The translations under genes were made by a program, and so were the position numbers. From the IMG/VR virus record IMGVR_UViG_3300045988_092366: a stretch of DNA of 64,000 nt. One strand, given 5' to 3'. The first letter of the stretch is position 1. Each line of letters opens with the position of its first letter. The notes under the pieces were generated by a model. It was given only the letters and a program-made list of their open reading frames with translations, made no database searches and was not told the origin of the DNA. This stretch comes from a virus. Shown one piece after another: positions 25,319 to 57,465 of the stretch.

Positions 25319-25798
25319 CTATACAATCATATACTCGTCTACAAGACCCTTAGCCTTGGCGCGAGCAGGCATATAACGTCCAGCCCACATGCGGCGAATG
25401 ACATCCTCTGGAACACGCTCTACACCACCACGTTTGGCATTCTGCGGCAAAGCGATGTCAAGACCACGGTTGAAGTACACAAGGATAATCTTGTCGGCGT
25501 TCTTACCGCAATTCTCAACGGTCTTGCGAAGCGACTTCCAAGAAATATGAGTAGCATCTGCAATAACATTAATATCATTGCAAAGATTGTCGTTAATCTG
25601 ACTATAGAAACCCTTAATAACGTCACTCTCATACTTAAAGTAATCCATAGAAGGAAGAAAATCAGGGTCATTTGCCATATACTCAAAGCGAATATAATCA
25701 CGAGAAACAATTTTGGCATTAAGTTCAGCACTATGCTCATGCGCCCAAAACGACTTGCCGCAACCAGGAATTCCTGCTAGAATATAAAGATTAGCCAT
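25319..25798 (-). CDS. P-loop kinase (polynucleotide-kinase/AAA_33-like)
   Basis: MANLYILAGIPGCGKSFWA is a Walker A motif; 159 aa. Promoter TTGACT...TATAATATATTTAAAGAAAGCCAAAAGAAGGAGA upstream. Confidence 0.6.
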   Translation of the reverse strand: MANLYILAGIPGCGKSFWAHEHSAELNAKIVSRDYIRFEYMANDPDFLPSMDYFKYESDVIKGFYSQINDNLCNDINVIADATHISWKSLRKTVENCGKNADKIILVYFNRGLDIALPQNAKRGGVERVPEDVIRRMWAGRYMPARAKAKGLVDEYMIV

Positions 25799-25865
25799 GT
25801 GACTCTCCTTCTTTTGGCTTTCTTTAAATATATTATACTAAAATATAAAGTCAATAATCAAAATA

Positions 25866-26217
25866 TTAATTACGATGACTATCAAAATAAATATTTTCTG
25901 CCGCACAATCCTCAAAATAGTCATTGATAGTATCAACTACATTATAATTCAAAGGATAGGATTGCGTGCCGCCCCAGTATCCACGGACAACGCCGTCAAA
26001 AGTATCAATATAGATATTGGGACCACCAAAAGCAACAAGAGCGCACACCGATAAGACCTACACCCATACGCCATATATAGTCAATTCCATAGTTATCGTT
26101 AAAATATTCTATTAATTCATCGCAGTCATCAGAATGATTATATTTGTCTACAAGTTCATCAAGTTCTTCTGAAATACACTTGCACTGTTCATAAAGCATA
26201 TCATCGGTGTTGCTCAT
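25866..26217 (-). pseudogene. Two overlapping ORFs (26005..26217 and 25866..26048); possible frameshifted single gene
   Basis: 44-nt overlap in different frames; only the upstream ORF has a promoter-leader. Confidence 0.3.
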
Positions 26218-26223
26218 GGGATA

Positions 26224-26425: not shown

Positions 26426-26713
26426 CGGCTAACCGAAGTGCTGCCCTCCATTCCATCTCGGGAACGCACCGCTTTCTAGGCGGGCCTAGTCGCTGGACTA
26501 GTTGATTAGCCAAAGCAGGATGCGTATTCACGGCACATCCAGACTAGCTGTTTTTGGTGTTTCGGCTCACCTAATACTCCGTGAAAGCACTTGCTTATCT
26601 CCTAGCAAGAAGGCTCGCTATCCTTTCGAATAGCTGTGCGGCGTTGCCTATTCTACCGCAAAGCTGTTTTCGGCACAACTTCAAAACCACCGCCAATAGG
26701 AGCGTGGAAAACT

Positions 26714-26796
26714 CGGAGATACCGAGACTCGAACTCGGAATGGCTTTCACCACGACACCTTAGCAGGGTGCTGCGCTACCATTACGCCACATCTCC
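26714..26796 (-). tRNA. tRNA-Ser(GCU), class II
   Basis: Reverse complement GGAGATG-TG-GCG TAATGGTA GCGC-A-GCACC CTGCTAA GGTGT-(variable arm TGGTGAAAGCCA)-CCGAG TTCGAGT CTCGG-TATCTCC-G. All stems pair (one GU); anticodon GCU. Confidence 0.8.
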
Positions 26797-26907
26797 ATAT
26801 ATAAACAGCATCAGACCTCTCTCTGTCAAGTTTCGCTATAAAGAAGCGCTGCGAGTTATCATTATTCTGTATCTAATGCTGTTTTAAATAAGTAACTGCT
26901 TTTTAAA

Positions 26908-27807
26908 CTATTGGTGAGACTTTAGCCACTTCTGAACATACCAAAGCTGGCCGCATCCACCACCAATATCATCTTGACCAGCTGGGTCAAATGTCCTTAC
27001 ATTATAACCCTTTTCTAAGAACTTATTCTGAAACTTCTTAATAACATCTAAGTTTCTAAACGCCGCATCTTTCATAGTTTCATCAGATGCGCAAACTACG
27101 CTAAAAGTAAAATTAAAGATTACAGGAGAAAACAGGTCTGTAAGTTCTTTAAAGTTCTTATCTCCATTATTGGTTCCATCAATGCAGTAATTTAAGAACG
27201 GATGTCTACCAGTTTCTTTCCACCAAACAGTTCCAGCATCCCTAATCTTTTGAAGATTCATCTTCTTCTTGAATGGAATTAACACATTCCGCTCTGCATC
27301 ATTGGACTTGTGGATAGAAAATTGTAGGCCGATTTTATCTATCTTTTTAGATAAAGCAATCATCTTTGCAAAAGTTTCATCATTATCGCATCCAATAGTA
27401 GAAAGCAATAATTGAGCATTACTAAACTTTTCGTGAAGATTGATAATTGCTTTCTCAACTTCTGTCCAATTTAACATAGGCTCGCCCATGCTCATAAACA
27501 TAAACTGTAACTTTTTACACTTTTCGTTAATGTCATTAATTAAACCTTTATCAGTTAAGACAGTTACAATCTGGTCTACAATTTCATCAGCAGTAAGATT
27601 CCTAACAAACTTAGACCCCGTGCCGCAAAAACGACATCCAACAGGACAACCGCTCATAACACTACAACAAATTACAGTTCTATCATAGTAACTATTATAT
27701 TTATATAGAACCGCTTCGGCGACCATATCTTCTTTTGTAAAGACATACTTCCATACATCGCCAGAGTTTCCCTCAAAAGTCTTAAAATTCATAACCGCTA
27801 CTTTCAT
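26908..27807 (-). CDS. RlmN/Cfr-family radical SAM RNA methyltransferase (short form)
   Basis: CSVMSGCPVGCRFCGTGSKFVRNLTADEIVDQI (CxxxCxxC plus the F.RNL...EI block) and C-terminal DDIGGGCGQLW (the RlmN catalytic Cys context). Confidence 0.7.
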   Translation of the reverse strand: MKVAVMNFKTFEGNSGDVWKYVFTKEDMVAEAVLYKYNSYYDRTVICCSVMSGCPVGCRFCGTGSKFVRNLTADEIVDQIVTVLTDKGLINDINEKCKKLQFMFMSMGEPMLNWTEVEKAIINLHEKFSNAQLLLSTIGCDNDETFAKMIALSKKIDKIGLQFSIHKSNDAERNVLIPFKKKMNLQKIRDAGTVWWKETGRHPFLNYCIDGTNNGDKNFKELTDLFSPVIFNFTFSVVCASDETMKDAAFRNLDVIKKFQNKFLEKGYNVRTFDPAGQDDIGGGCGQLWYVQKWLKSHQ

Positions 27808-29101: not shown

Positions 29102-29638
29102 TTACTCTCCAAGCTCAATCTTTTTCTGCTGGACATCGAGCCAAATGTCGTGAATATTGACAGGAGTAAGGTTATTCGTGTCAACGCCTACGTGATACGT
29201 CCAATCAGCAAGGCCTTTAGGAGCCGCATCATGGACATGACCATACAGAATGACATTGGCGCTGTCTCCACACATTTCCTCGGGACGCTCGTGAATCATA
29301 ATGAAACTAACATCGTTGTAATCAAGGCAAGACACCTTGTTTTCGATAATCCAGCCGAGCTTTTCCATTTCTGCAATGCGCTTCTTGGTATCATGATTGC
29401 CGGGAATCACATGAATCTTGCCGTTAAGACGAGAACCGTACTTAGCTACAGTCTCAAGCGGTCCCATGAAGCAATCACCAAGATGATAAACAGTATCACC
29501 AGGAGATACAACAGAGTTCCACTTTTCAACGATGTGTTCGTTCATATCTTCGACCGTATTAAAAGGACGCGACTGGTCACAATAGGTGATAATATTCTTG
29601 TGAGAAAAGTGAGTGTCGCTTACTACAAAGGTGCTCAT
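29102..29638 (-). CDS. Calcineurin-like metallophosphoesterase
   Basis: Start trimmed to MSTFVVSDTHFSH (RBS AAGGAG). Motifs VVSDTHF, YHLGDCF and IPGNHDT. Confidence 0.7.
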   Translation of the reverse strand: MSTFVVSDTHFSHKNIITYCDQSRPFNTVEDMNEHIVEKWNSVVSPGDTVYHLGDCFMGPLETVAKYGSRLNGKIHVIPGNHDTKKRIAEMEKLGWIIENKVSCLDYNDVSFIMIHERPEEMCGDSANVILYGHVHDAAPKGLADWTYHVGVDTNNLTPVNIHDIWLDVQQKKIELGE

Positions 29639-29695: not shown

Positions 29696-29705
29696 CAAAA
29701 AAAAT

Positions 29706-29724
29706 AGGGACTCAAGAGAGTCCC
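29706..29724 (-). terminator. Hairpin gggactcaagagagtccc plus T8 (minus strand)
   Basis: Sits between the RNA-element array and the phosphoesterase promoter. Confidence 0.65.
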
Positions 29725-29740
29725 TACAAAAATATCAATG

Positions 29741-29823
29741 TGTGCGGAAAAAGTTTATTCAGTGCTGGATGGTCATAAAAATTGCTATATGAAGTAACTG
29801 AATAATAATCACGCACATTTGCG
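29741..29823 (-). ncRNA. Two-stem structured RNA element, copy A
   Basis: tgtgcg...cgcaca terminal stem and agtttattcagt/actgaataa inner stem around a 40-nt variable core. Confidence 0.5.
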
Positions 29824-29990
29824 TCTATATAGCTCGCACACTATATAGGCGAGAAAGGGGTTTACAAATAAAGGCAAGGAAAAAGTGTAAAGAGTGTTGG
29901 TGGGGTTGCCTCTTTCTAATGAAAGCTGCTCTTATTTAAACATATAACGAAGTAACTCTTTACTAATCACTTGCCGCACAAGAGAAAGCG

Positions 29991-30066
29991 ATACGGAAAT
30001 AGGTGTTTCAGTTTGAGTAATCAGCTCAGAATGGAGATTTGAAGTATCTGGAACATTATCACGTAT
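29991..30066 (-). ncRNA. Two-stem structured RNA element, copy F (compensatory variant atacg/cgtat)
   Basis: atacggaaa...gtttcagtt...tctggaac...atcacgtat. A 3'-half remnant of a further copy lies at 29948-29982. Confidence 0.45.
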
Positions 30067-30087
30067 CGCCTACTTTAATAAAATGAA

Positions 30088-30195
30088 TGCGGAAAAGGTT
30101 AAATCAGTTTAAACGTGCAACCGACACAGAGCTGGAGTCGAACCAGCGAGTACATTTTTCCAGAATGAAGTAACTGATTTATTATCACGCATTAT
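30088..30195 (-). ncRNA. Two-stem structured RNA element, copy B, carrying a tRNA T-arm mimic in the core
   Basis: aatgcg/cgcatt and aaatcagtt/aactgattt stems. Core (minus strand) contains GCTGG-TTCGACT-CCAGC. Confidence 0.55.
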
Positions 30196-30208
30196 AATAA
30201 ATAAGATA

Positions 30209-30295
30209 AATGCGGAAAAGTTAGATTCAGTGTCTAATTATTAACATACCAAAATTAATGAAGTAACTGAATCTTAATCACGCATTTAATAAACG
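30209..30295 (-). ncRNA. Two-stem structured RNA element, copy C
   Basis: aatgcg/cgcatt and tagattcagt/actgaatcta stems. Confidence 0.5.
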
Positions 30296-30398
30296 TTGGT
30301 GCCGCATCTAGGTACCGCCCCTAGCCAGTCTAAGACAGAAGATTTACAGTCTTCCCCTCGTCTTTAAAGGAATACTGCGGCAATTATAATTTAAAATT

Positions 30399-30504
30399 TA
30401 GTATGCCTTGTCTTGGGTTCGGGAGTCGGACCCGAATGCCTTGCGGCGCTATTTTTTGAGAATAGTGTGTATGCCAGTTCCACCAACCCAAGATAAGGCA
30501 TACT
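30399..30504 (-). ncRNA. 20-bp inverted repeat (19/20 match) enclosing a 66-nt loop with a T-arm-like hairpin
   Basis: agtatgccttgtcttgggtt ... aacccaagataaggcatact. Loop (minus strand) has CGGG-TCCGACT-CCCG and aaaaaatagcgccgc. Confidence 0.5.
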
Positions 30505-30513
30505 AACATGCCT

Positions 30514-30960: not shown

Positions 30961-31005
30961 TTACAAAGCTCCTTTTCTGCTTTTGGATAAATTGAGTAGC
31001 TATCT

Positions 31006-31063
31006 ACTCTGCTGGAATGGTAGGACTCGAACCTACAACAATGCTGGCTGCTTACACATCAGC
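31006..31063 (-). tRNA. 3' half of a split tRNA gene (variable region, T-arm GTAGG-TTCGAGT-CCTAC, acceptor CATTCCA)
   Basis: Acceptor 3' strand pairs 7/7 (one GU) with TGGAGTG of the 5' half at 31544-31550. Confidence 0.5.
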
Positions 31064-31483
31064 TTACCAGTTCTTTACTACTTCCTCCAATTCATAATCT
31101 TTTGCCCAAGTTACTCCCCTGCTTTGCCCATTCTTTGCAGGAAGAACACGAAGTTTTTTATCTGCTCCGCATTCATCGACAGGAATCAAGTAACATTTTT
31201 TATTGAACGAAGTAACAAAATAATCAATTTCATCTTTTGTATATTTATGATGAATTATCTTACCATCTTTACGATTACAGCTTCTTCCACTAAAACTAAA
31301 AGAAGCTCCATTGTCATTTGTATGAGAAGTTTTACTTTGAATTCGTAAAAATTTTCCTCCTGCATCAACTACAAAATCATATCTTTCACAATCTCCATAT
31401 GGAGTTAATACATTGAAACCCAATTTTAAAAAGGCTAACATAGCTTCAAATTCCGTTACGTTGCCTATTTGTTTACTATTCAT
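31064..31483 (-). CDS. PD-(D/E)XK nuclease (Hjc-like), homing-endonuclease-like, inserted inside a tRNA gene
   Basis: GNVTEFEAMLAFLKLGFNVLTPYGDCERYDFVVDAGGKFLRIQSKTSH. The D...D...QxK core is shared with the N-terminus of 38286..39035. Confidence 0.6.
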   Translation of the reverse strand: MNSKQIGNVTEFEAMLAFLKLGFNVLTPYGDCERYDFVVDAGGKFLRIQSKTSHTNDNGASFSFSGRSCNRKDGKIIHHKYTKDEIDYFVTSFNKKCYLIPVDECGADKKLRVLPAKNGQSRGVTWAKDYELEEVVKNW

Positions 31484-31511
31484 ATTTGTTTCATAAAGCT
31501 AGTAAGGTCAG

Positions 31512-31550
31512 GTAAACAGCCGCGTGCTCTACCATTGAGCTACACTCCAG
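31512..31550 (-). tRNA. 5' half of the split tRNA (acceptor TGGAGTG, D-arm GCTC-AATGGTA-GAGC, start of anticodon stem)
   Basis: Reverse complement TGGAGTGTAGCTCAATGGTAGAGCACGCGGCTGTTTACC. The ATG of the nuclease ORF follows about 25 nt later. Confidence 0.5.
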
Positions 31551-31578
31551 CAGGGTAGATAAACCACATTTTGTTCTA

Positions 31579-31647
31579 TTGGAGCGGCAAGACTCGAACT
31601 TGCGACACGTTGAGTTAACAACATTCTACCAACTGAATTACACTCCA
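31579..31647 (-). tRNA. tRNA-like gene (69 nt) with canonical acceptor, D and T arms but a truncated anticodon arm and a 12-13-bp extended acceptor helix
   Basis: TGGAGTG-TA-ATTC AGTTGGTA GAAT-[GTTGTTAACTCAACGTGTC]-GCAAG TTCGAGT CTTGC-CGCTCCA-A. Flanked by ttctattgga/tccaatagaa. Confidence 0.45.
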
Positions 31648-31877
31648 ATAGAACGAATTACTTAGATAAAAGGACGTTATGAAGATAACCGTCAGCTTCT
31701 TCAAACGTATCAAAGCTCTTGATGATTTCAAAACGAACAACAGAGCAATCAGTGTTGACACGAATCGAATAGATGCCGCAAGTCTTTTCACGGCAGATAA
31801 CGAACTTTTTCATAACTTCCTTCTCTCTCTTGGTTTATATATATTATATCATTATATAAACCAGAAGTCAAGAAAAA

Positions 31878-31978
31878 TATGCGGAAAAATTGCATTCAGA
31901 CTATAAGTGCGGCGTACCGCATCCTTAAAATAAAAATTGTCTTCAAGAAGTAACTGAATTCTCGTCACGCATATCAAA
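31878..31978 (-). ncRNA. Two-stem structured RNA element, copy E
   Basis: atgcggaaaa...gcattcagac...gaagtaactgaattc...tcacgcat. Confidence 0.45.
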
Positions 31979-32206
31979 TTACTAATTAAGAAAGAATGAC
32001 ACCCTGCTTTGCCTTGTTAATCTTGCGGCGAAGTTTGCGCATAATGCCGACATTCTCTGAGTTCTTACCCTTGCGATTAATAAGCATCTGATAACGCTGT
32101 TCCATCGTCTCGATTGACTGTGCCATACTTTCTTACCTTTCTCTTGGTTAAATATATTATATCAAATTATTCAACTATTTGTCAAATAATTTTTTATAAA
32201 CAAGGT

Positions 32207-36932: not shown

Positions 36933-37883
36933 TTAATTTTCAAACCAGTTACGCAACTCGATTACCGAAGGGCAAGTTCCTCGACCTTGCTCGCGGCACT
37001 CTTCCACGAACTCAGGAATTGCGTCCATGAGACTGGGTTCAAATGCCAGCTTGTTCTTGATGTTCTTGATAGTCTCAATATCGCGTCCAGTCCAAACCTG
37101 CTGCAAAACTCCACGAGCCTGCTTCCAGTTCTTGTACCAAGGAGTCTTATACTTCACCATAAAACCGTCTGCATCCTCGAAGACAAAGCCCTCGATGCTA
37201 GCACGTGCGGCCCACTTGTCAATGAAGGCTTCAAACTCCTGCCAGTTAGCAATGACTTTGCTAAGAACCTTGCAATAGAATCCAAAATGTCCAGCTACAT
37301 CAATAAGTGTATAGTACCCCGCATGGCTATAGTTGAAATCATTGTACACCAAGTCCAAAAGCACAAGGTGAGGATGTGAATACTCAACGATATGCGGGTC
37401 ATGGATAGGGTCAATGCACTCGAAGACAGCAGTGCAGTCATTCTTGTGCAGATATTCTGCAAATTCCTCCTGCTGTGCAGTGGTCAACGTCTTGTCAAGA
37501 ACGTCACGGATATATCCTGCAAAATCTCCCTCATTCGTGCTCTTGGATGCGATGAACAGCTTACCGTCCTCGGTCGGGTCGGCAGAAATCATCGCAAGAA
37601 ATCCGTTAGACTTGACATATGCGCACACAGGGAACACAAGATTCTCACGCAGGCTAACCATTTCAGTCTCAGGACGCTCTCCAATGTTGAAAAATTTGTT
37701 GTACGAACGTGCAACAACCTTATTGTTAGCACAATCCACGAAAAGCCCTCGACTACGAATCGAAGCAGAATCCCATTCCTTTTTGAAAAAGCACTTGTTG
37801 GAGAAATTAAAAGACGAGATTCCATTTGCAAGATGCTTCTCGCGCACAAGCGAGCTATTACGCAGCATATCGACTTCGTTCAT
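36933..37883 (-). CDS. ATP-dependent ligase-like nucleotidyltransferase (RNA/DNA ligase superfamily, KSNG variant of motif I)
   Basis: Motif I AYVKSNGFLAM; III TAVFECID; IV EGFVFEDADG; V FMVKYKT. 316 aa. Confidence 0.55.
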   Translation of the reverse strand: MNEVDMLRNSSLVREKHLANGISSFNFSNKCFFKKEWDSASIRSRGLFVDCANNKVVARSYNKFFNIGERPETEMVSLRENLVFPVCAYVKSNGFLAMISADPTEDGKLFIASKSTNEGDFAGYIRDVLDKTLTTAQQEEFAEYLHKNDCTAVFECIDPIHDPHIVEYSHPHLVLLDLVYNDFNYSHAGYYTLIDVAGHFGFYCKVLSKVIANWQEFEAFIDKWAARASIEGFVFEDADGFMVKYKTPWYKNWKQARGVLQQVWTGRDIETIKNIKNKLAFEPSLMDAIPEFVEECREQGRGTCPSVIELRNWFEN

Positions 37884-40279: not shown

Positions 40280-41254
40280 TTATTTTTCATCGTATGCGGC
40301 AAAAGCATTTAGCATTTTAGTGATAAGAGCGTGCCTTACAACATCTGCTTCTGTCATGCGGACAACGCCGATACCAGATACATCTTTCAGACTATTGGCA
40401 AGATATTCAAGACCGCTTTCGCCTTTGGAATCTTGCTGAACCAAGTCGCCGCACAAGACAATCTTAGAATCTTCTCCTAAACGTGTGACTGCAAGTTTTC
40501 CTAGAATCGTATTCATATTCTCTGCTTCATCCACGAGAAGGAAAGTCTTATATAGAGAACATCCGCGCATATATCCTAGCGGTAACATCTTAATTTTACC
40601 CTTTTCGATATATGAATCAAGTTTCTCACGCCCGAGAACTCGTTCAAATACATCCATCATAGGAAGTGCATATAGTGAAAACTTTTCATCGGCAGTGCCG
40701 GGAAGTGCGCCTAAATCTGCTTCACCTTTTGCTGAAACCATTGGACGAGAGATAACGATAGTATCTACGTTCTTATTGATAAGCTGAGACAGAGCATAGC
40801 ATACTGCTGTATAGGTCTTGCTTGCACCAGGAGGAGCAATACAAATAGTAATAGCATTGTGCCGCATACTATTTAGATATTCAAGTTGACCTTCTGTGCG
40901 GACCTTGATTTCTTTCTTACCATATTTCAAAATCGTGGTAGAAGAATCAGAATTGTCAAAGATGCCGCCATCCGCACTTTGCCTTGCAAGAAGCTGTACT
41001 TCATCTGTACTGATTTCGTCTTTTGAGCAAGCAATTTCAATCAGCTTTTCAAATACCTCTTGAGCTTGATGTACAGATTTCTCCTTGCCAAAAATTACGA
41101 TATTATTCTCTTCCTTAGAGCGTCCAAGATTAACACGTAGAGAGTCATCAATTTGCTCTTTAATGGCCTTCACATACCTATCTGATGGGCCTAGCACATT
41201 GACGGCATCAATACCACGAGGAATAGACACGTTAACTTGGATACTGTTGTTCAA
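40280..41254 (-). CDS. phoH: PhoH-like ATPase
   Basis: P-loop APPGASKTYTAV; LVDEAENM and CGDLVQQD motifs; N-terminal KH-like region. Confidence 0.75.
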   Translation of the reverse strand: MNNSIQVNVSIPRGIDAVNVLGPSDRYVKAIKEQIDDSLRVNLGRSKEENNIVIFGKEKSVHQAQEVFEKLIEIACSKDEISTDEVQLLARQSADGGIFDNSDSSTTILKYGKKEIKVRTEGQLEYLNSMRHNAITICIAPPGASKTYTAVCYALSQLINKNVDTIVISRPMVSAKGEADLGALPGTADEKFSLYALPMMDVFERVLGREKLDSYIEKGKIKMLPLGYMRGCSLYKTFLLVDEAENMNTILGKLAVTRLGEDSKIVLCGDLVQQDSKGESGLEYLANSLKDVSGIGVVRMTEADVVRHALITKMLNAFAAYDEK

Positions 41255-44455: not shown

Positions 44456-44968
44456 CTAGATTGCTTTTAATTGGTCAATGATTGGCAAGATTTGCATATT
44501 GCTTGTGCCGATAGCGTAGTTTTGCTGCTCTGAAATAAATACAATCTTGTCAAACGGTTCATTGTCTTGTGGCGAAACTTTGCATCTATACATTTCTGCA
44601 ATTTCCTTTTCACTTAGACGATGATATTTATCACGATTCTTATTGCGCGCAACTGCTACATTTTGTGGAGTTTCAACCCAAACGCAAATAACTTCGCAGC
44701 CATTGTAATTTACATTGTTGAAAAACTTATCGCGCTCAACGCGATTGATATTGCGGTCATTCGCCACAACGTAACGATGTGATTTTAAGGCAATGTTAAC
44801 TGCGTTATAAAAGCGCTTGTCAACTGTGTCGGCTTCTTCTGAATTATACATGCGGCAATTATCTCTCTTGATTGCCATACAGTCTTCATGTGAATCTTGA
44901 ATTGCCTTTGCAAATACAGACTTACCGCTCTGCGTTACACCGCACATTAGAATTAGCGTATGCTTCAT
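44456..44968 (-). CDS. P-loop kinase (polynucleotide-kinase/dNMP-kinase-like)
   Basis: MKHTLILMCGVTQSGKSVFA is a Walker A motif. Confidence 0.55.
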   Translation of the reverse strand: MKHTLILMCGVTQSGKSVFAKAIQDSHEDCMAIKRDNCRMYNSEEADTVDKRFYNAVNIALKSHRYVVANDRNINRVERDKFFNNVNYNGCEVICVWVETPQNVAVARNKNRDKYHRLSEKEIAEMYRCKVSPQDNEPFDKIVFISEQQNYAIGTSNMQILPIIDQLKAI

Positions 44969-45834: not shown

Positions 45835-46767
45835 ATGTCTCACTTCAATAAGTATGTGCATCTTGAGCGCTCGACTCGTGCAGAAGTCCAGAACTTCATC
45901 GGTCGTGACGTAATTTTGCAGCCTAAACTGGATGGTAGCAACGCTTCCATCTGGGTAGATGATGATGGAAATATCGCTTGCGGCAGCCGCACCCGTGAGA
46001 TTTCTGTTGATAATGATAATGCTGGTTTCACTGAGTACGTCACCAACACTGATGATGTTGAGGTCAAGGCACTAAAGAACTGGTTGCTTGACCATCCTAA
46101 TTATATCATTTATGGTGAGTGGCTTGGCGGTGTTGATGGCCGCAAGTTTACTGGTACTATCAAGACTTATCTTGAGGGCGGTTTCTTCATCTTTGATATT
46201 CTCAATACTGAGGATGGTGAGTATATTGATTATGATGTATGGTATCCAGTAGTCAGCAAGTTCTATCATCGTTGCGTTCCTGTCATTTGCCGCATCAATA
46301 ACATGACTTGGGATGATGTGAACAAGCATGTTGACGAGTGTACTTACAATCTTCCGAAAGGAACTATCGGAGAGGGCATCGTAATCAAGGCTTATCCTTG
46401 CGTGCGCGACCCGTGGGGTAATGTTCAAATTGCCAAGATTGTCCGTGACGAGTGGCATCAGGATAAGTCTAAGAAGAAGCCTGTCTACACGGGCACTGAC
46501 TCTTTGGAGAAGGAGTTTGTAGAGAAGTATTGCACCGATGCCTTTGTCGAGAAGGAGGTCAATAAGGTTCTTATCGCTCTTGATATGGACAAAATTGATT
46601 GTAAGAACGGCAAGTTCTTCGGCATGGCTATCAATAAGGTTCTTGACGAACTTATGGAAGAGAACTTCTGGGATTTCTTCAAGAAGAAGAAAGCTGCTTC
46701 TGTCAAACTGGCCGCAATCAAGGGTCTTACTCAAGCACGAGTACGCGAGTACATTCTTAACAACTAA
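45835..46767 (+). CDS. Rnl2-family ATP-dependent RNA ligase
   Basis: YVHLERSTRAEVQNFIGRDVILQPKLDGSNASIWVDDDGNIACGSRTREI parallels T4 Rnl2 Y..LEnhy...ewvarEKIHGTNfSliie.d.v.caKRTg; motif I KLDGS. Confidence 0.7.
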   Translation: MSHFNKYVHLERSTRAEVQNFIGRDVILQPKLDGSNASIWVDDDGNIACGSRTREISVDNDNAGFTEYVTNTDDVEVKALKNWLLDHPNYIIYGEWLGGVDGRKFTGTIKTYLEGGFFIFDILNTEDGEYIDYDVWYPVVSKFYHRCVPVICRINNMTWDDVNKHVDECTYNLPKGTIGEGIVIKAYPCVRDPWGNVQIAKIVRDEWHQDKSKKKPVYTGTDSLEKEFVEKYCTDAFVEKEVNKVLIALDMDKIDCKNGKFFGMAINKVLDELMEENFWDFFKKKKAASVKLAAIKGLTQARVREYILNN

Positions 46768-47879: not shown

Positions 47880-48668
47880 ATGAATAAATCAGAGATGTTT
47901 AATTTTCTTGACAATAGGTTTCGTAATTGTAATCCTGAGTTCTTAAAATTGTCTCAGGTATATTTTGAAGATGCCGTTGAAGATACTTTTTATAATTTTA
48001 TTAAGCAAATTGGCAATACTATTGGTGCTGATTGGGTTAATGGTGGTTGTTCTAAATCTGTATTTCATTTTAAAGAGTTTAACAACTATGTGTTTAAGAT
48101 TCCTTATATTGGATTTTTTCATATTGAGGATGAAGATAATCAATATTTTAAAGACTGTGCTGAGCAAGAGCGTGTGCCTACGTATTTCTGCTTTGATGAT
48201 GTAGTCCTTTATAAAAATGCAAATAATGATGGTGCATATCCAGTAGATGCAAATGACTATTGTGCGGTTGAAGAATATATTTATCGTATTGCCCGCAAGT
48301 ATAATGTTAATCAGATGTTTACTAAGACTGCTTTTTTAGGTTTTATATGCGGCGTTCCGGTGTATGTTTCTTCTTGCGCTGGGAAAACATATAGTCGTAA
48401 AAAGAGCAATTGCCGCAAGACGGATAAAATTGCAAAGGCAATGATTGATAAAAGCTGCAAAGAGCACAAAGATAGCTATAGTGAATTTTATACTACAGAG
48501 TGTGGCGTTTTCATTGAAACGTATGGTCGCAGGGCAACTCAACGCTTTATTGATTTTCTTTATAAAGAAAAGATTTCAGACTTGCATACTGGCAACTATG
48601 GTTATGATGCTCTTGGCAATTTGAAAATCATTGACTACTCTGGTTTCCATGACCTAGATGTTTTCTAA
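47880..48668 (+). CDS. Putative atypical (ePK-like) protein kinase
   Basis: Gly-rich loop GGCSKSVFHF; VFKIP (VAIK-like Lys); HTGNYGYDALGN (catalytic-loop-like); KIIDYSGF (DFG-like). Confidence 0.35.
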   Translation: MNKSEMFNFLDNRFRNCNPEFLKLSQVYFEDAVEDTFYNFIKQIGNTIGADWVNGGCSKSVFHFKEFNNYVFKIPYIGFFHIEDEDNQYFKDCAEQERVPTYFCFDDVVLYKNANNDGAYPVDANDYCAVEEYIYRIARKYNVNQMFTKTAFLGFICGVPVYVSSCAGKTYSRKKSNCRKTDKIAKAMIDKSCKEHKDSYSEFYTTECGVFIETYGRRATQRFIDFLYKEKISDLHTGNYGYDALGNLKIIDYSGFHDLDVF

Positions 48669-48743: not shown

Positions 48744-50204
48744 ATGTCTAAGTTTAATGAAAAGGTTAAGCCCGAGCGTTCTATGTCATACGAGGGCGGC
48801 GAGAATTACAAGAAGGATGTACTTGAGGATTGGATGAATTTCCTGTTCTCTAGCAAGATGGACGATGGTTTCTACGAGAATGCCGACACGCAGCAGACTC
48901 GTTTCATCGAACTTACGAATCTTGTAATTGATAAGTATGGCGCTGAGTTCGCTGGTAAGTGTGCCATGTTTGCACGAAACCAACTTGGTATGCGTAGTGT
49001 CTCGCAGCTTGTTGCGGCTATGCTGAATGGTCAGAGCTTTGAGCGCAAGCGCGATTTCTATAAGGCTTTCTGTCATCGTCCTGATGATATGTCTGAGATT
49101 TTCGCAGCTGTTGACATGCTTGGTGGCAAGCGTTCTCATTCTATGATTCGTGGTTTTGCAGATTATATGTCTGGTCTTTCTGAGTACAATCTTATGAAGT
49201 ATCAGATGAAGGGCAAGCGCTATAACATGTATGACCTTATCAATATCATTCATCCCAAGAGTGGCATTGTTGATGGTTACATGAATGGTAAGCTAGAAGC
49301 TGCTGATACTTGGGAAGTCAATATCTCCACTGGCAAGGATAGTTGGAAGAATATGGTTGAGGGTAATCGTCTCGGTTATCTCGCTCTTATCCGTAATCTC
49401 AACAACATTCTCGCAGAGGACGTTGACGATGAATGGATTAAGCGTAATCTTGTAGACCAGCTTATTAACGAGGTTTCTATCAAGAAGTCTCTTGTATTTC
49501 CTTATCAGATTTATATCGCTTATCGTAATTTAAATGTTCAGAATTTTGCGGTCATCACTGCACTTGATACTGCTTTCCGCATTGCTTGCGGAAACATGCC
49601 AAAGTTGGAAGGTAATTCTGTTATCATGCTTGATGTCTCCGGTTCGATGGAAGACCGCTATGGTAATAAGTCCAATCTCACCATCAAGGAAGTTGGCGCT
49701 TGCTATGCTGCGGCTCTTTACATTAACGGTAATTGCGACTTTGTAAAGTTCGGCAATCGTGCTAAGTCTGCAACTTTCAAGAAGGCTTGCGGCCCATTCC
49801 AAGTAATTCGTGAAATGTGTGAGAACGATAATTGCGGTTATGGAACTGACATTGCTCCTGCTTTCGGTCTTATCAGTGACAAGAAATACGACCGCATCTT
49901 CGTTGTCTCTGATATGCAGGTGATGGCAAGACAGTATACTTATTGGGGAGATAGCACTGACGGTATGTGCAACTATAATAATTATTGTGCTGTACATGGC
50001 CGCACAATTCTTTATAGTTTCGACCTCGGCAACTATGCTGACCAAATTGCTAATCCAGGTAATCCTGACGTCCACCTCATGACAGCTCTGAACGATAACG
50101 TCTTCAAGATGCTTGAATACGTAGAGAATGGCGGCAAGCTGTACGACTACATCAATGATAACTACCATTTCTACGCCAACGATAACGATAACTACCTCTT
50201 CTAA
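48744..50204 (+). CDS. Ro60/TROVE-domain protein with C-terminal vWA domain (Rsr-like)
   Basis: C-terminal MIDAS motif VIMLDVSGSMEDRYG and FVVSDMQ; N-terminal 300 aa have TROVE-like length and composition. Architecture matches bacterial Rsr. Confidence 0.65.
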   Translation: MSKFNEKVKPERSMSYEGGENYKKDVLEDWMNFLFSSKMDDGFYENADTQQTRFIELTNLVIDKYGAEFAGKCAMFARNQLGMRSVSQLVAAMLNGQSFERKRDFYKAFCHRPDDMSEIFAAVDMLGGKRSHSMIRGFADYMSGLSEYNLMKYQMKGKRYNMYDLINIIHPKSGIVDGYMNGKLEAADTWEVNISTGKDSWKNMVEGNRLGYLALIRNLNNILAEDVDDEWIKRNLVDQLINEVSIKKSLVFPYQIYIAYRNLNVQNFAVITALDTAFRIACGNMPKLEGNSVIMLDVSGSMEDRYGNKSNLTIKEVGACYAAALYINGNCDFVKFGNRAKSATFKKACGPFQVIREMCENDNCGYGTDIAPAFGLISDKKYDRIFVVSDMQVMARQYTYWGDSTDGMCNYNNYCAVHGRTILYSFDLGNYADQIANPGNPDVHLMTALNDNVFKMLEYVENGGKLYDYINDNYHFYANDNDNYLF

Positions 50205-50304: not shown

Positions 50305-51156
50305 ATGGCAGAAAATGTAAATAAAATTCAGAATAGGGTTGAAGAGCATCTTGGCGCTATTATTGCCACAGGCAAGTATTGGCAGTATCCATATCTTGTA
50401 TGCGCAGCCAATGGTTCCATGAATTATAATCTATGGGACGAAGAATCTGATGTTGATACCAAGTTGCTTATGATTCCAACAGCATATGATTTGTTCTTGG
50501 ATAAGAAGCATCTTAATAAAGTCGAGATTATGGACAATGACGAGCATTGTACAGTTAAAGATTTTCGAGACTATTTTAAGATTCTCCATAAGGCAAATAT
50601 TAACTTCTTGGAAATTCTTTGCACTGAGTATTATGTTGTTAATCCTAAGTATAAGATTTACTGGGAATATCTTCGTAAACATTGTGATGATATTGCCAAT
50701 CTTAATCCGCAGAAATTAATTTTTTCTTCTCTTGGAATGGCTATGGAAAAGGCAAAGAAGATTTGCCATGATTCTCCTGCAAACCATGAACTGATTGAAA
50801 AGTATGGGTATGTGGCGAAGGAATTGCAACATATCATGCGACTGTATCTGTTTGTCAAGCGTTATCTTATTGATGGAGCGTCATTCTCAGAAGCTATCTG
50901 GATTGATGAACGTAATTCTTTAGGTAAAGAGAACCTATATCGTGATGAAATGATGGCTATTAAACGTTATGGTATTATATATTCGTCAGAAGATGCAAAG
51001 GCAAAGGCAGAACACTATGTAATGAAAATGGACGAGCTTATTGAGAATAATTCTAAGTTTATTCCTGAGCCGTCTAAGGATGCGGTAGATGCACTTGAAT
51101 CAACTCAGTTTGCTATCATGAATTCTTATATGTCCGCAGCCTATAATAAACGATAA
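50305..51156 (+). CDS. Pol-beta-superfamily nucleotidyltransferase
   Basis: Gx9-13-D-x-D/E pattern in CAANGSMNYNLWDEESDVDTKLL; 283 aa. Confidence 0.5.
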   Translation: MAENVNKIQNRVEEHLGAIIATGKYWQYPYLVCAANGSMNYNLWDEESDVDTKLLMIPTAYDLFLDKKHLNKVEIMDNDEHCTVKDFRDYFKILHKANINFLEILCTEYYVVNPKYKIYWEYLRKHCDDIANLNPQKLIFSSLGMAMEKAKKICHDSPANHELIEKYGYVAKELQHIMRLYLFVKRYLIDGASFSEAIWIDERNSLGKENLYRDEMMAIKRYGIIYSSEDAKAKAEHYVMKMDELIENNSKFIPEPSKDAVDALESTQFAIMNSYMSAAYNKR

Positions 51157-54308: not shown

Positions 54309-56402
54309 TTGGATTTTAAAGTAAGTTTAGACGATGTTATTGATAATAGCTTTGGACAATATGCAGGAGCAGTTATTCAATCACGTGCGCTAGTAGACGT
54401 TCGAGACTGCGTAAAGCCATCTACTAGACAAGTCCTGTACTGTATGTTCACAGACAAATTCACTCATGACAAGCCATTTAAAAAGACGCTGAAAGCAATA
54501 GGAAGTTGCATGAGACTCTATATTCACGGAGACGCATCTTGCGAAGGTATTGTAATGCGCAGTGGACAGCCTTTTTCCATGAGGTATCCATTGGTAGAAG
54601 TTGAAGGTTCATACGGGACTTTAACAGAAACAGGAAACTGGGCCGCACCACGATACACGGCATCACGTCTTTCTCCGCTGTCTGATTATCTTCTTAAAGA
54701 AACTGATAAATATACAGTAGATGAATGGGTAGATAATTATGACGATACTGAGAAGTATCCTAGAATTCTTTCTTCTCTTGGATTTTATAACATCGTCAAT
54801 GGCACAAGCGGAATTGCGTCTGGTCTTGCAAGCTCTGTTCCACAGTTCAATCTCAAAGAAGTAAATGCGGCAATGGTATATATGCTAGAACACAAGGATA
54901 CTACATTTGATGATATTCTATGTTATCCTGATTTTGCAACTGGCGGCACAATTCTCAATAAAGATGAAGTGCGTGAAAGCCTTAAAACTGGCAAAGGTAA
55001 AGGCTGTATTATTCGTGCAAAGCTAGAATATGATAAAAAAGATAATTGCATTATTGTTCGTGAACTTCCTTACAGCGTATATACTAATACAATTTGTAAT
55101 GAAATTGAAAAGATTACAAATGATGAAGAAACCAATCCCGGCATTATTAATCTAAATGACCTTACAGGTGAAGATGTTTGTATTAAGATTTATCTTTCTA
55201 GGTCTGCCAATCCAAAAGAAGTAGCAACTTATCTGTTTGAAAATACTTCTTTGCAGAAAACTTATGGTATTAATATGACTATGCTTGAGAACGGTCGTTA
55301 TCCTAAAGTCTTTGGTTGGCAAGAAGCATTGACAGCACACTTAAAACATGAAAAGCAAGTATATATCAATATGTATAATCATCAACTTGATGTTCTTAAT
55401 TACAAGTTGAAAATTACAAACGGTATCATTGCGGCAATTAATAAGATTGATGAAACAGTTGAGACAATTAAAAATTCTTCTTCAACCAAAGAAGCTAATG
55501 AAAAACTACAATCTTTTCTAAGCATTGATGAAAACCAAGCCAAAGCGATTCTAGAAATTAAACTTATTCGTCTTGCAAAATTAGAAGTAAACAAGCTACT
55601 TAAAGATAAAGAAAATCTTGAGTCTGAGATTGAACGAATTAGTTCTATTTTAAATTCAAATAAACTTCTAAAGCAAGAAATGATTAAACGTTTTAATGAA
55701 GTATCTGAAAAGTTTGGAGACGAGCGTCGCACTAAAGTAGTCCAAAAAGAAATTACAAAAACAAAAAAGGCAAGGTCTTCTGCGCCAAAAGAGAATAGGA
55801 ATTTTGTTATTGCATTTAATCCTCTTGGTTATCTGCAAAAAGTCTCACCTTCTAAGTACAAGAGTGATGGTAGCCTTGCATTCACTGTATCTGAGGATAG
55901 AAAAGTAGCTCTATTCTCGAACAAGGGGCGATTCTTTAGGATTGCTCTTTCAGATATTAAAGAATGCGGTTCAAAGGATAAGGGCACAGCTATCGGTGCA
56001 ATCATCAATCTTGATAATGACGAAAAGATTATCACAATTCATAATGATGTATTCGTAGATAAGCCTTATATGTTCTTTGTTACAGAAGACGGTAAGGTTA
56101 AGAAGTGTGAAGGTAAACAATTCGCTGGTGGCACTCGTAACGTTAAAGGTTCTGTAGCATTTAAGACCGACAGCAAAATTGTCAGCATCCAAGAGACAAA
56201 TGGATGTGTTGTAACATTAACATCAACCAAGAGACAAATTAGTTTCATGGCTGATAGTGTGCGGGCAAGCAGTATTCGTTCTGGCGGCATGTGCGGTATT
56301 AAGTTAGACGATGATGATAGAATTGTATCTATGACAATTACTGAACCGCAGAACTTTACAGGTAAAATTGCAAATAAGGGTGGACGAGGGGTTATTCTTT
56401 AG
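54309..56402 (+). CDS. Topoisomerase II DNA breakage-reunion subunit (GyrA/ParC-like, T4 gp52-type); TTG start
   Basis: QSRALVDVRDCVKPSTRQVLYCM and the active-site Tyr context NWAAPRYTASRLS. RBS GAGGTGA before the TTG, which directly follows the gyrB-like stop. Confidence 0.8.
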   Translation: MDFKVSLDDVIDNSFGQYAGAVIQSRALVDVRDCVKPSTRQVLYCMFTDKFTHDKPFKKTLKAIGSCMRLYIHGDASCEGIVMRSGQPFSMRYPLVEVEGSYGTLTETGNWAAPRYTASRLSPLSDYLLKETDKYTVDEWVDNYDDTEKYPRILSSLGFYNIVNGTSGIASGLASSVPQFNLKEVNAAMVYMLEHKDTTFDDILCYPDFATGGTILNKDEVRESLKTGKGKGCIIRAKLEYDKKDNCIIVRELPYSVYTNTICNEIEKITNDEETNPGIINLNDLTGEDVCIKIYLSRSANPKEVATYLFENTSLQKTYGINMTMLENGRYPKVFGWQEALTAHLKHEKQVYINMYNHQLDVLNYKLKITNGIIAAINKIDETVETIKNSSSTKEANEKLQSFLSIDENQAKAILEIKLIRLAKLEVNKLLKDKENLESEIERISSILNSNKLLKQEMIKRFNEVSEKFGDERRTKVVQKEITKTKKARSSAPKENRNFVIAFNPLGYLQKVSPSKYKSDGSLAFTVSEDRKVALFSNKGRFFRIALSDIKECGSKDKGTAIGAIINLDNDEKIITIHNDVFVDKPYMFFVTEDGKVKKCEGKQFAGGTRNVKGSVAFKTDSKIVSIQETNGCVVTLTSTKRQISFMADSVRASSIRSGGMCGIKLDDDDRIVSMTITEPQNFTGKIANKGGRGVIL

Positions 56403-56430
56403 TCTGCCCTTTTCTTTCTATTGGAGGAAT

Positions 56431-57465
56431 ATGTCTCTAAATATTTATTCGCCAATGTTGGTTGGCAAAGCTCCCAAAAATTACGAAGATATGCTTAAAA
56501 ATACACCAATCATCGGTACTATTAAGAAAGATGGATATTGGTCACAACTAGTTAAAGACGAGAATGAGGTTCATCTTTATAGTCGCACAGTCTCTAAAAA
56601 GACTGGCTATTATAGTGATAATATTGATAAAGTGCCGCATATTAAAGATTGGGCTATGAATGAGCTTCCTAATGGCACATGTATCATCGGTGAAGTTTAT
56701 TATCCTAATGGTACCTCTAAGAATGTAACATCAGTTTTAGGTGCTTTACCAGAGAAAGCAATTGAACGTCAGAAAGGCGAGTACGGCAAAATTCATTTTT
56801 ATATGCACGATATTCTTGCATATAACGGCGAAGATTATGTTATGAATAATATGACATATGATTATCGTTACAGTAATCTTTGTGAGCATATTGATATTGC
56901 TACTCCTTTAATTCCAGAACTTGAAGTAGCACGATGCTACGATAACGCTTATTTAGACCTAAATAAAGTCACAATTGATAAACTCGCCGCAGGCGAAGAG
57001 GGTATGGTATTTCGTGTCGAGAATGGTCTATATGCACCAGGCAAGCGACAGCCAAAAGTCATGTTCAAAATCAAGCAGGCTCAGAATGATATTGATTTTG
57101 TAATTACAGAAGTTCTGCCGCCAGAATATCTTTATACTGGTAAGGAATCTGAGACTTGGGGCTATAAAGATAAAGAAGGTAATCTAATTACAAAGGCCGC
57201 ATATTATGGTTGGGCTGGGGCTTTACGACTTGGCGCATATGATAATGCTGGAAACCTTGTGTCTGTTGGTCGTGTGTCTTCTGGTCTTACAGATAATCTT
57301 AAAGCTGACCTCGCAGCCAATCCTGATAAATATATTGGAACGGTTGTAGAGGTAAACTGCATGAGTCTAGATAAAGGAAATAAAACCATGAGACATTGTT
57401 ACCTATCTAGGCTTCGCGCGGACAAACCAGCACAGGACTGTAAGCTAGAAGAAATTTTTAGCTAA
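56431..57465 (+). CDS. ATP-dependent DNA ligase (T7-like)
   Basis: Start trimmed to MSLNIYSPML (RBS GGAGGA). Motif I IKKDGYW (KxDG); motif IV EGMVFRV; motif V KVMFKIK. Confidence 0.7.
   Translation: MSLNIYSPMLVGKAPKNYEDMLKNTPIIGTIKKDGYWSQLVKDENEVHLYSRTVSKKTGYYSDNIDKVPHIKDWAMNELPNGTCIIGEVYYPNGTSKNVTSVLGALPEKAIERQKGEYGKIHFYMHDILAYNGEDYVMNNMTYDYRYSNLCEHIDIATPLIPELEVARCYDNAYLDLNKVTIDKLAAGEEGMVFRVENGLYAPGKRQPKVMFKIKQAQNDIDFVITEVLPPEYLYTGKESETWGYKDKEGNLITKAAYYGWAGALRLGAYDNAGNLVSVGRVSSGLTDNLKADLAANPDKYIGTVVEVNCMSLDKGNKTMRHCYLSRLRADKPAQDCKLEEIFS

Follow-up and report, generated by a model that had tools for sequence, protein, structure and literature searches.

A dispersed set of putative RNA-repair genes and a family of Y-RNA-like hairpins in a large tailed phage

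The window analysed here, a stretch of 64,000 nucleotides (nt) from the IMG/VR virus record IMGVR_UViG_3300045988_092366, represents by its gene content the early and replication region of a large tailed phage. Nine of its protein genes fall into families of RNA repair, modification and surveillance: a Ro60-like protein, two RNA ligases (one of the Rnl1/Trl1 type, one of the Rnl2 superfamily), two kinases resembling polynucleotide kinase, a calcineurin-like metallophosphoesterase, a probable RlaP-family nucleotidyltransferase and two RNA methyltransferases, which share the region with an island of transfer RNAs (tRNAs) and other small RNAs. An initial annotation had presented them as a single, unprecedented system. 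Our results confirm the underlying observation: all nine open reading frames (ORFs) are present where they had been placed, the nine family calls are supported by profile, motif or fold evidence, and related contigs, wherever they cover these genes, retain all nine. Together, the RNA gene set is more than chance. Its genes do not form one operon; they are spread over 32 kb and, because they have promoters and terminators of their own and DNA-metabolism genes stand between them, they are not one system in the operon sense. They are nonetheless linked in evolution, the comparative data connecting most of the set. We read them, with a probability of about 0.6, as a distributed kit that keeps the RNAs of translation usable during infection, a reading that draws on family membership, catalytic motifs, the Ro60 fold, RNA covariation, conservation and neighbourhood linkage. 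The biology proposed by the initial annotation is probably right, and its presentation as one system without precedent was overstated.

The Ro60-like protein (48744..50204, plus strand) combines a TROVE ring with a vWA/MIDAS domain and is encoded between its own promoter (48677-48706) and terminator (50221-50244). It matches Pfam TROVE at 52.9 bits (cut-off 23) and phrog_850, and carries the MIDAS motif DVSGS. An AlphaFold model built on 18 homologues (predicted local distance difference test, pLDDT, 80.7) matched Ro60 structures, and no other fold, over its full length, with template-modelling (TM) scores of 0.65-0.71. The structures matched were Ro60 of the Thermus phage phiLo (9l5y), Xenopus (1yvp) and human Ro60 and Deinococcus Rsr (2nvo), the phage protein being the closest solved structure (TM ~0.7, 20% identity). 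Because the NCBIfam Rsr equivalog model gives 16 bits against a cut-off of 900, the window protein would by that model be a distant member of the Ro60 family rather than an Rsr orthologue. We found 1144 homologues, mostly on contigs of 130-145 kb, and a single 90% cluster holds 1179 sequences; Ro-like proteins were present in 84 of 50,697 phage records.

The candidate RNA partners of Ro lie in the RNA island (29700-33100, minus strand), where we identified six paralogous hairpin RNAs of ~85-115 nt. Five stand in tandem (29739..30289, minus strand; approximately 29739-29820, 29871-29978, 29987-30070, 30083-30196 and 30206-30289) just upstream of the phosphoesterase gene, the array ending at an intrinsic terminator at 29727-29704, and the sixth (31876..31976, minus strand) is downstream of a promoter at 31871-31843. 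All follow one plan, in which an outer stem, an unpaired UGAU, a 9-bp inner stem and an unpaired UACUUC lead to a variable insert of 20-60 nt, after which come the returning inner strand, an unpaired ..UUUUCC and the returning outer strand. The copy at 30083-30196 retains a T arm. In an alignment of 38 distinct copies from relatives, 88% of the cells were paired and 13 of the 17 pairs showed compensatory double changes, against 27-45% pairing in slid controls. An exact-pattern scan of IMG/VR recovered the family in this clade only, its 11 other matches being due to chance, with a pattern too strict for the copies of sister lineages described below.

The same hairpin family was found in four of the four other lineages (L121, L123, L124 and L125), in the 315-373 nt gap directly upstream of Ro and on Ro's strand. 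Scanned with Rfam (E up to 0.01), L123-L125 gave no match, and the Ro-adjacent RNAs of these three were located through their motif. L121 and L124 clearly have one long and one short member and L123 has a long member with a divergent second copy; in L125 the module shows a T-arm-like element only and the second copy is doubtful. The variable insert of the long member in L121, L123 and L124 runs from a T arm through a hairpin to a D arm, as is typical of YrlA, and the long copy of L121 aligned from one end to the other with the Rfam YrlA model (34 bits; E 9e-6 for a search of 451 nt). When the six window copies were aligned with five Ro-adjacent copies, 93.6% of the cells were paired, 15 of the 17 pairs showed compensatory changes, and the unpaired nucleotides GUGA, U.CUUC and U.UCC were invariant. 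The cmscan alignment placed CAGUUGCUUC under the cgaAUGCuu region of the YrlA model, the position being analogous and the sequence different. The intergenic regions beside Ro in the window contain terminator hairpins and promoters only and no Y RNA, the upstream gap being a promoter of 75 nt.

Because the window hairpins belong to the same family as the Ro-adjacent RNAs with the YrlA module, we read all six as the Y-like RNAs of this clade, which would bind Ro, and we read their position as the result of a move into the tRNA island and a multiplication to six in the window lineage. The family was previously unrecognised and is not detected at the Rfam threshold. Its GUGA, U.CUUC and U.UCC nucleotides, in the shared basal stem, would be the likely platform for Ro binding, and the variable apical modules, one of them with a T arm, the likely adaptors. 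A separate Rfam YrlA match at 31496-31632 (38 bits, sub-threshold) was rejected, as it is a composite of the T arm of a tRNA-like element and the D arm of the tRNA-Asn 5' exon, and its 3' closing stem lies inside a mobile insert that relatives are without; the authors of the YrlA survey (Chen et al.) warn of such a tandem-tRNA artefact in YrlA detection (PMC4201824).

Comparison of gene order across lineages connects Ro with the putative repair enzymes. In L121 and L124, whose Ro is 52-55% identical to that of the window, one strand carries in succession a Metallophos gene, an AAA_33 kinase, RuvB, the Rnl2-like ligase, small ORFs, a homologue of orf262, the Y-like RNAs, Ro and the Rnl1-like ligase, followed by a tRNA array, so that phosphoesterase, kinase, both ligases and Ro are co-directional within 12 kb and Ro is flanked by both ligases. 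L123 and L125 keep the order of the window, in which the Rnl2-like ligase and Ro are followed by an RlaP-like gene and then gyrase, and in L125, whose Ro is 71% identical, a SPFH-kinase pair diverges from the Rnl2-like...Ro-RlaP genes as it does in the window. All five lineages seen retain the Rnl2-like...orf262-like...Ro block. In Phass-1, a distant gut phage, a stretch of ~6 kb accommodates the kinase, phosphoesterase and RlaP genes together with a long tRNA array. We also observed that the kinase gene of the sister lineage carries an intein (Hom_end/LAGLIDADG within AAA_33; L121 659-2290).

The conserved neighbour upstream of Ro, orf262 (47880..48668, plus strand), has a homologue with 24% identity in the same slot in L121 (8669-9355), and no match in Pfam, PHROG or PDB. 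Its invariant residues (GGCSKSV, VFKIP, DLHTGN, IIDYSG) may recall protein-kinase motifs. A structure model of orf262 (pLDDT 57) was too weak for a structure search and was set aside.

These neighbourhoods bear on whether the Ro60/Y-like RNA particle serves repair at all. It could instead be a device of decay and quality control, in which the Y RNA tethers Ro to the host PNPase, as in Deinococcus and Salmonella, and clears structured or misfolded RNA while the ligases and kinases act independently on cleaved tRNAs. A function of Rsr, Y RNA and PNPase together is known (PMC4201824), the variable apical modules suit tethering, and the link between Ro and the ligases is here genomic, not physical. 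However, the slot right after Ro always holds an RNA-repair enzyme (RlaP or the Rnl1-like ligase), the Rnl2-like ligase always heads the block, and no nuclease gene is linked to it. We regard a pure decay device as possible but unlikely, on the understanding that this and the other explanations considered below are not mutually exclusive.

The Rnl1/Trl1-type ATP-dependent RNA ligase (36933..37883, minus strand) matches PF09511 RNA_lig_T4_1 (140.9 bits, 7.5e-41), and motifs I (KSNG), IV (EGFV) and V (KYK) are all present. The initial annotation had looked to profile searches for a possible reassignment of the TROVE protein or of this KSNG protein to unrelated families, and both kept their place. 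Its best PDB matches are the ligase domains of fungal Trl1 (9qw7 and 6n0v, 5e-12 to 1e-10), which puts it nearer to fungal Trl1 than to T4 Rnl1 among solved structures. It also matches positions 419-698 of the 737-residue family phrog_8238 (2.6e-78). Since kinase 1 matches positions 1-138 of the same family, kinase and ligase appear to be fused as one protein in some phages; a Staphylococcus phage record labels its match to the ligase 'polynucleotide kinase'. The second ligase (45835..46767, plus strand) matches PF09414 RNA_ligase (63.7 bits, cut-off 27; 3e-17) and, over its full length, phrog_548 (8.5e-42), and its motif I is KLDGS. Its match to the Rnl2 model TIGR02307 is weak (34.7 bits vs a cut-off of 197) and no PDB sequence matched it, so its profile scores place it in the Rnl2 superfamily and not as an Rnl2 equivalog. 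The gene heads the rightward block, divergent from the kinase-2 block, and has its own terminator (46778-46812).

Kinase 1 (25319..25798, minus strand) matches AAA_33 (1.6e-13) and the polynucleotide kinase family phrog_505 (6e-18), shows the motifs GIPGCGKS and SRDYIR, and has as PDB neighbours PSTK, Pnkp1 of Capnocytophaga (4xrp) and T4 Pnk (1ly1). Kinase 2 (44456..44968, minus strand) matches AAA_33 (7.7e-12), phrog_505 and, weakly, TIGR04075 bacter_Pnkp (28 bits vs a cut-off of 750), with the motifs GVTQSGKS and KRDNCR and the kinase of Clostridium CthPnkp (4gp7) in the PDB. Both have the Walker A and RD..R (Asp-x-x-Arg) motifs and, at 159 and 170 residues, each stands alone without a HAD domain. 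The metallophosphoesterase (29102..29638, minus strand; Metallophos_2 4e-10, phrog_547 5e-43) has all four motifs of its class (DTH, GD, GNHD, GHVH) and 1xm7 as PDB neighbour, and its homologues adjoin tRNA islands in Phass-1, in the related loci L027/L029 and in Enterococcus phage EFP01.

The nucleotidyltransferase (50305..51156, plus strand; promoter 50251-50279) is a divergent Pol-beta protein, probably of the RlaP family, with a match to phrog_388 nucleotidyltransferase (7e-14) and the Pol-beta motif GS...SDVD. With E allowed up to 0.1, Pfam gave no match for the window protein itself; PF10127 is matched at 24-39 bits (cut-off 23) by the homologues from Phass-1, Listeria phage LIS04 and Bacillus phage vB_BcoS-136, the L125 orthologue has a weak RlaP match on record, and the Pol-beta active-site residues are invariant in the alignment of homologues. 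RlaP enzymes add one or two nucleoside monophosphates to damaged RNA 3' ends (PMC12776372). The gene sits after Ro and before the gyrase genes, and the nearest ligase ends ~3.5 kb upstream in a separate transcription unit. The initial annotation had coupled Ro with this neighbour. We rejected an obligate pair because the RlaP synteny of vB_BcoS-136 occurs without Ro and because in L121 and L124 the slot after Ro holds the Rnl1-like ligase.

Two RNA methyltransferases complete the nine. The radical SAM enzyme (26908..27807, minus strand) is RlmN/Cfr-like (TIGR00048, 1.3e-32, 113 bits), with a CxxxCxxC motif (CPVGCRFC), a Cys seven residues upstream and a C-terminal GGGCGQL, so that both mechanistic cysteines are kept. 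It is without the N-terminal accessory domain, the match covering positions 81-342 of 355 of the hidden Markov model, and all RlmN and Cfr models score far under their cut-offs (TIGR00048 113 vs 290; Cfr models ~1e-23 to 5e-25). Its phage clade (44-54% identity) appeared in 42 of the 50,697 phage records. The SPOUT (SpoU/TrmH-class) 2'-O-methyltransferase (41863..42435, minus strand) matches PF00588 (79.7 bits, cut-off 29.7; 3e-22) and no PHROG family, with all subfamily models under cut-off (TrmL 42, RlmB 40, TrmJ 27 and TrmH 25 bits); its relatives appeared in 4 of the 50,697 records.

Taken together, these parts suggest the following course of events. Individually promoted early genes would supply replacement tRNAs, and RNAs cut by ribotoxins such as anticodon nucleases would have their ends healed, the metallophosphoesterase removing 2',3'-cyclic or 3'-phosphates and the two kinases resembling polynucleotide kinase phosphorylating 5'-OH ends. 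RlaP would restore the one or two nucleotides lost at the 3' end; sealing would fall to the Rnl1/Trl1-type ligase at broken anticodon loops and to the Rnl2-superfamily ligase at nicks in duplex RNA. The SPOUT (2'-O) and RlmN/Cfr-type (adenine-C) methylases may make tRNA or rRNA resistant to renewed cleavage or, alternatively, may complete the modification of the phage's own tRNAs. Finally, a Ro60 ring loaded with the phage Y-like RNAs would capture damaged or misfolded RNA ends and pass them to repair or decay. The healing-and-sealing proposal of the initial annotation agrees with the kinase, phosphoesterase and ligase families and their active-site motifs, and is supported by the neighbourhoods of L121, L124 and Phass-1; every biochemical step, the substrates and the binding of RNA by Ro we infer from sequence.

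Several points weigh against reading these genes as a kit. At least eight separate transcription units are interleaved with gyrase, DNA ligase, dCMP deaminase and ThyX: sigma-70-like promoters matching at 12 of 12 positions precede Ro, RlaP, orf262 and the gene that follows orf136, and strong intrinsic terminators close the Rnl2-like gene, Ro and orf136, which does not fit the single system first proposed. No neighbourhood link was found from the RlmN-like or SPOUT genes to the rest of the RNA set, in which they had been included from the start. Bacillus phage vB_BcoS-136 keeps the order RlaP - small ORF - GyrB - GyrA with no Ro there. For the kinases the top-scoring match is PSTK, and for the phosphoesterase it is an uncharacterised Aquifex protein, in neither case a proven end-healing enzyme, and phrog_562 annotates Rnl1 relatives as catalysts of tail-fibre attachment; because T4 Rnl1 also has that role, the name ligase is no proof of repair. 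The Y-like RNAs lie 17 kb away from Ro in the window, their YrlA scores of 34-38 bits are far under the Rfam gathering score of 69, and the published Ro-binding motif GNCGAA is absent as such from them, neither the bacterial form (GNCGAAN0-1G) nor that of animals (GGUCCGA) occurring in the 5' strand of their stem.

Much of this would be expected if the genes were unrelated accessories, co-located merely as early-region cargo of large phages. The kinases would then act on nucleotides, the phosphoesterase on signalling nucleotides or DNA ends and the ligase on tail fibres, like T4 gp63, and the methylases would alter host ribosomes for unrelated reasons. The separate promoters and terminators, the interleaving with DNA-metabolism genes, the RlaP-gyrase synteny without Ro, the tail-fibre label of phrog_562 and the assignment of kinase and phosphoesterase at family level only all speak for it. 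Against it, the same families recur together, co-directional and near tRNA arrays, at only 30-55% protein identity, both RNA ligases flank Ro in L121 and L124, and all members are kept across the clade. We consider mere cargo unlikely, and prefer a distributed kit for the upkeep of translation RNAs.

In the RNA island itself, tRNAs and several further RNAs are accompanied by five strong promoters and one terminator. Seven tRNAs were found in the window by ARAGORN and six by Rfam. Those for Met(CAU) (32207-32276), Gln(CUG) (32705-32780), Pro(UGG) (32782-32857) and Thr(UGU) (32975-33059), all on the minus strand, were detected by both (Rfam 45-56 bits), with promoters at 33224, 32686 and 32185, as was tRNA-Ser(GCU) (26713..26797, minus strand; Rfam 57.1 bits). 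The tRNA-Leu(CAA) gene (30410..30492, minus strand) was called by ARAGORN only, Rfam giving no tRNA match with E allowed up to 5; relatives retain it, and its status as a working tRNA is uncertain. A tRNA-Cys(GCA) at 42890-42961 (minus strand), again called by ARAGORN only, overlaps an ORF and has no Rfam match even at E up to 5.

The island also holds a tRNA-like element (31573..31654, minus strand) with a 14-bp terminal stem, a D arm and a T arm, in which a stunted 3-bp arm with a 6-nt loop replaces the anticodon arm. It matches Rfam tRNA at 44.5 bits, 6 nt substituting 11 model positions, with a fold z-score of -4.2, and is conserved in relatives with a compensatory change in the T stem. 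It could be a processing signal or a mimic; it lies 12 nt past a 51-codon ORF and just ahead of the tRNA-Asn gene. With this element and the Y-RNA-like family, the idea of a tRNA-mimic cluster holds in spirit. A 'tRNA-Tyr-like with CCA' candidate at 30286-30375 was dropped, its folding not exceeding that of shuffled sequences (z +1.1). The ~390 nt from a strong promoter to tRNA-Met (32277-32665, minus strand) contain an orphan T arm (32613-32629) and an unconvincing 81-codon ORF; the region has no Rfam match and a fold z-score of only -1.5.

One tRNA gene of the island is interrupted. The split tRNA-Asn(GUU) gene (31012..31549, minus strand), identified with the intron mode of ARAGORN, carries an insert of ~465 nt (31050-31514) at position 36/37, where close relatives have an intact tRNA-Asn. 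The insert consists almost wholly of an ORF (31064-31483, 420 nt), with ~45 nt outside it, and encodes a homing endonuclease of the PD-(D/E)XK class like I-Ssp6803I (PDDEXK_5 1.9e-31; PDB 2ost 8.8e-9). A related endonuclease gene (55-81% identity) occurs on 30 other phage contigs, including the cultured Enterococcus phage EFP01, and nearly all inspected copies sit within a tRNA anticodon loop; the tRNAs interrupted elsewhere (loci L026-L055, and L081/L120, which are EFP01) are Asn, Lys, Ile and one with a UUA anticodon. The insert-bearing tRNA with the UUA anticodon, which would be an ochre suppressor, has a perfect 5-bp anticodon stem (L052, ~3900-4560). Apparent ARAGORN introns in the relatives L059 and L061 were false, ordinary tRNAs lying within them.

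In the split genes, the anticodon stems of the exons still pair and covary. The last three nt of the insert always complement the anticodon (GUU/AGC, UUU/AAA, GAU/AUC, UUA/UAA) and the next three pairs of this exon-intron helix covary too, with 97% of the cells paired and 11 of 11 pairs compensatory, in a register set by hand from tRNA geometry, which biases it toward structure, the continuous helix permitting shifted registers. No Rfam intron or ribozyme matched the insert at E up to 10. A group I intron was rejected, there being no room for a core of at least ~200 nt and no conserved terminal G; with the splice site taken as 36/37, the insert ends in C (A in L041). A bulge-helix-bulge intron was rejected too, position 36/37 not being the canonical 37/38 and the splice sites lying 3 bp apart on a continuous, bulge-free helix. 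The window tRNA-Asn has two changes in its 3' exon and this copy may be decaying.

A 2014 review placed all phage introns then known in protein-coding genes (PMC3984707), and no later description was found in the literature consulted. The nearest known case is the group I intron of Synechocystis tRNA-fMet, of 655 nt with an ORF of 150 codons (PMC1995217), which likewise carries an endonuclease of this family (I-Ssp6803I) in a tRNA anticodon loop. Unlike it, the phage insert is of ~465 nt with 420 in the ORF, is without a terminal G in some members, matches no Rfam group I intron, and has a covarying helix between the anticodon and the last three nt of the intron.

Such an insert might be removed by protein enzymes. 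Cleavage by a protein endonuclease at two positions of the anticodon-intron helix, 3 bp from each other, would release the insert, and the exons would be rejoined by a phage ligase, namely the Rnl1/Trl1-type enzyme with kinase and phosphoesterase in the window and RtcB in EFP01. EFP01 encodes RtcB (201.7 bits) and two homologous phosphoesterases, and the 100 of its 155 kb that were examined contain no counterpart of the ligases, kinases, RlaP or Ro of the window; no relative of its RtcB was found in the window or in the other loci fetched. That the healing-and-sealing enzymes also form such a protein-only splicing pathway seems to us quite improbable, since the kit is complete in close relatives that do not have the insert. 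Very improbable, finally, is that the kit mainly matures the phage's own RNAs, with defence against host nucleases secondary, by splicing ribozyme-less tRNA introns, trimming and sealing tRNA and Y-like RNA precursors and modifying phage tRNAs: an intron with no room for a ribozyme and a covarying exon-intron helix, a ligase closest to the tRNA-splicing ligase Trl1, the same intron type with an RtcB 'tRNA-splicing ligase' in cultured EFP01 and a phosphoesterase gene abutting the RNA island in the window and in L027/L029 would all fit, but relatives with the whole kit have an intron-less tRNA-Asn, the other predicted introns in relatives are false, RNA ligases are common in big phages with tRNA arrays regardless of introns, and no splicing endonuclease was identified.

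The distributed kit can be compared with known systems, and here the statement that none contains the whole combination went too far. Jumbo phages with tRNAs, Rnl1 and Rnl2, polynucleotide kinase, phosphoesterases (including calcineurin-like ones), RlaP and Ro/TROVE have been catalogued, and Ro has been described as a repair platform with a tRNA-like partner (Iyer, Anantharaman, Krishnan, Burroughs and Aravind 2021, PMC7824862). The parts list is the same, with calcineurin-like phosphoesterases in a few of these phages and Ro/TROVE in a small subset. The window phage differs in its genome of ~140 kb, under the usual jumbo size, in the addition of a truncated RlmN/Cfr-like and a SPOUT methylase, and in having Y-like RNA partners identified.

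Bacteria have operons of rsr, Y RNA and rtcBA, with the Y RNAs encoded next to Ro and on the same strand, and a phage Ro with an adjacent YrlA-like RNA has been reported for 22 phages (PMC4201824). Deinococcus Rsr/Yrn1 and Salmonella rsr-yrlBA-rtcBA resemble the phage loci in the Ro60 ring with a vWA domain, in small RNAs beside Ro on its strand (in the four sister lineages), in RNA ligase genes alongside, and in a long RNA with a T-arm/hairpin/D-arm module next to a shorter one, as with YrlA and YrlB. They differ in that the phage ligases are ATP-dependent enzymes of the Rnl1/Trl1 and Rnl2 types with separate end-healing enzymes, not RtcB/RtcA, in that the phage RNAs carry GUGA, U.CUUC and U.UCC instead of GNCGAA, and in that the set is phage-borne and has no RtcR-type regulator. 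With respect to the phage Ro60s described so far (Thermus phage phiLo, and mycobacteriophage Ro with YrlA-like RNAs), ours belongs to a different, very large metagenomic clade.

T4, whose Pnk, Rnl1, Rnl2 and tRNA cluster counter PrrC, shares with the window phage a P-loop/Asp-Arg 5'-kinase, both ligase families and tRNAs, and in both phages the repair genes are scattered and not operonic. In T4 Pnk, however, a HAD (DxDxT) phosphatase is fused to the kinase, whereas the window has a stand-alone calcineurin-like phosphoesterase, two kinases and, in addition, Ro, RlaP and two methylases. The bacterial Pnkp/Hen1 and Pnkp1-Rnl-Hen1 complexes combine the same kinase, metallophosphoesterase and ligase chemistries with a methyltransferase that could mark RNA against re-cleavage. 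Unlike them, the window has these activities on separate genes 4-12 kb apart and not in one Pnkp polypeptide, its methylases have the unrelated SPOUT and radical-SAM folds, and a Hen1-family match was reported for none of the window ORFs scanned. The window set is a variation on the known phage RNA-repair toolkit and on the Ro-Y RNA-ligase arrangement; the unrecognised Y-like RNA family and the two rare methylases are what is new.

The phage is best explained as having a genome of ~140 kb and as a member of a large metagenomic clade. Megablast of 16 kb of the window against the 50,697 phage records found no near-identical DNA; near-identical and related contigs of 80-147 kb are present in IMG/VR and public assemblies. 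For single genes, the closest cultured relatives belong to large phages of Firmicutes (Staphylococcus, Listeria, Bacillus and Enterococcus), and by their sequences the ligases and the nucleotidyltransferase resemble those of such phages. The window region further encodes a sigma factor, a Sak4-like annealase, a DnaB-like helicase, GyrB, GyrA, a GIY-YIG endonuclease, ThyX (Pfam Thy1), dCMP deaminase, and a RuvB-like ATPase split by an intein (Hint + LAGLIDADG; 21449-23503, minus strand). Its ATP-dependent DNA ligase (56368-57465) falls inside the range of the initial annotation, which ended at 57465; it is part of the replication module and outside the RNA set.

A PhoH-like ATPase (40280..41254, minus strand; PF02562 9e-57) forms a tight block with orf197 and the SPOUT gene, with gene ends at 41254/41268 and 41861/41863. 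A SPFH/Band-7 gene (43480-44412, minus strand) adjoins kinase 2, and such genes accompany several members of the RNA set, namely kinase 2 in the window and L125 and, from an upstream position, the phosphoesterase in L027/L029, with a recurrence also listed for L120; one is annotated over or adjoining the RlmN-like gene in Stenotrophomonas and Xanthomonas phages (records H212 and H214). Two genes from the Rnl1-like ligase lies a second PDDEXK_5 endonuclease, fused to a zinc ribbon (38286-39035, minus strand), which was found in one related locus only (L024) and is probably a free-standing mobile endonuclease. The control region (45500-45640) between the divergent kinase-2 block and Rnl2-like gene contains AT-rich short repeats of the TATATA type, and strong hairpins at 45650-45680 and 45717-45739 flank this repeat stretch.

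Little is understood of Ro60/Y RNA particles beyond a few bacteria and animals, and this abundant clade offers a compact natural system, with Ro between two ligases and up to six paralogous Y-like RNAs with a common stem and differing apical modules. It thereby becomes possible to test directly whether Y RNAs act as interchangeable adaptors between Ro and effector enzymes. That the Rfam models miss a whole Y-RNA family means that Ro genes seemingly without an RNA partner may have undetected ones. The interrupted tRNA genes invite the question by what means a phage excises an insert devoid of a ribozyme; protein-only splicing, if true, would be the first enzyme-catalysed tRNA splicing in the bacterial and phage world. 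For the phage itself, the kit is a candidate counter-defence against tRNA-cleaving immunity.

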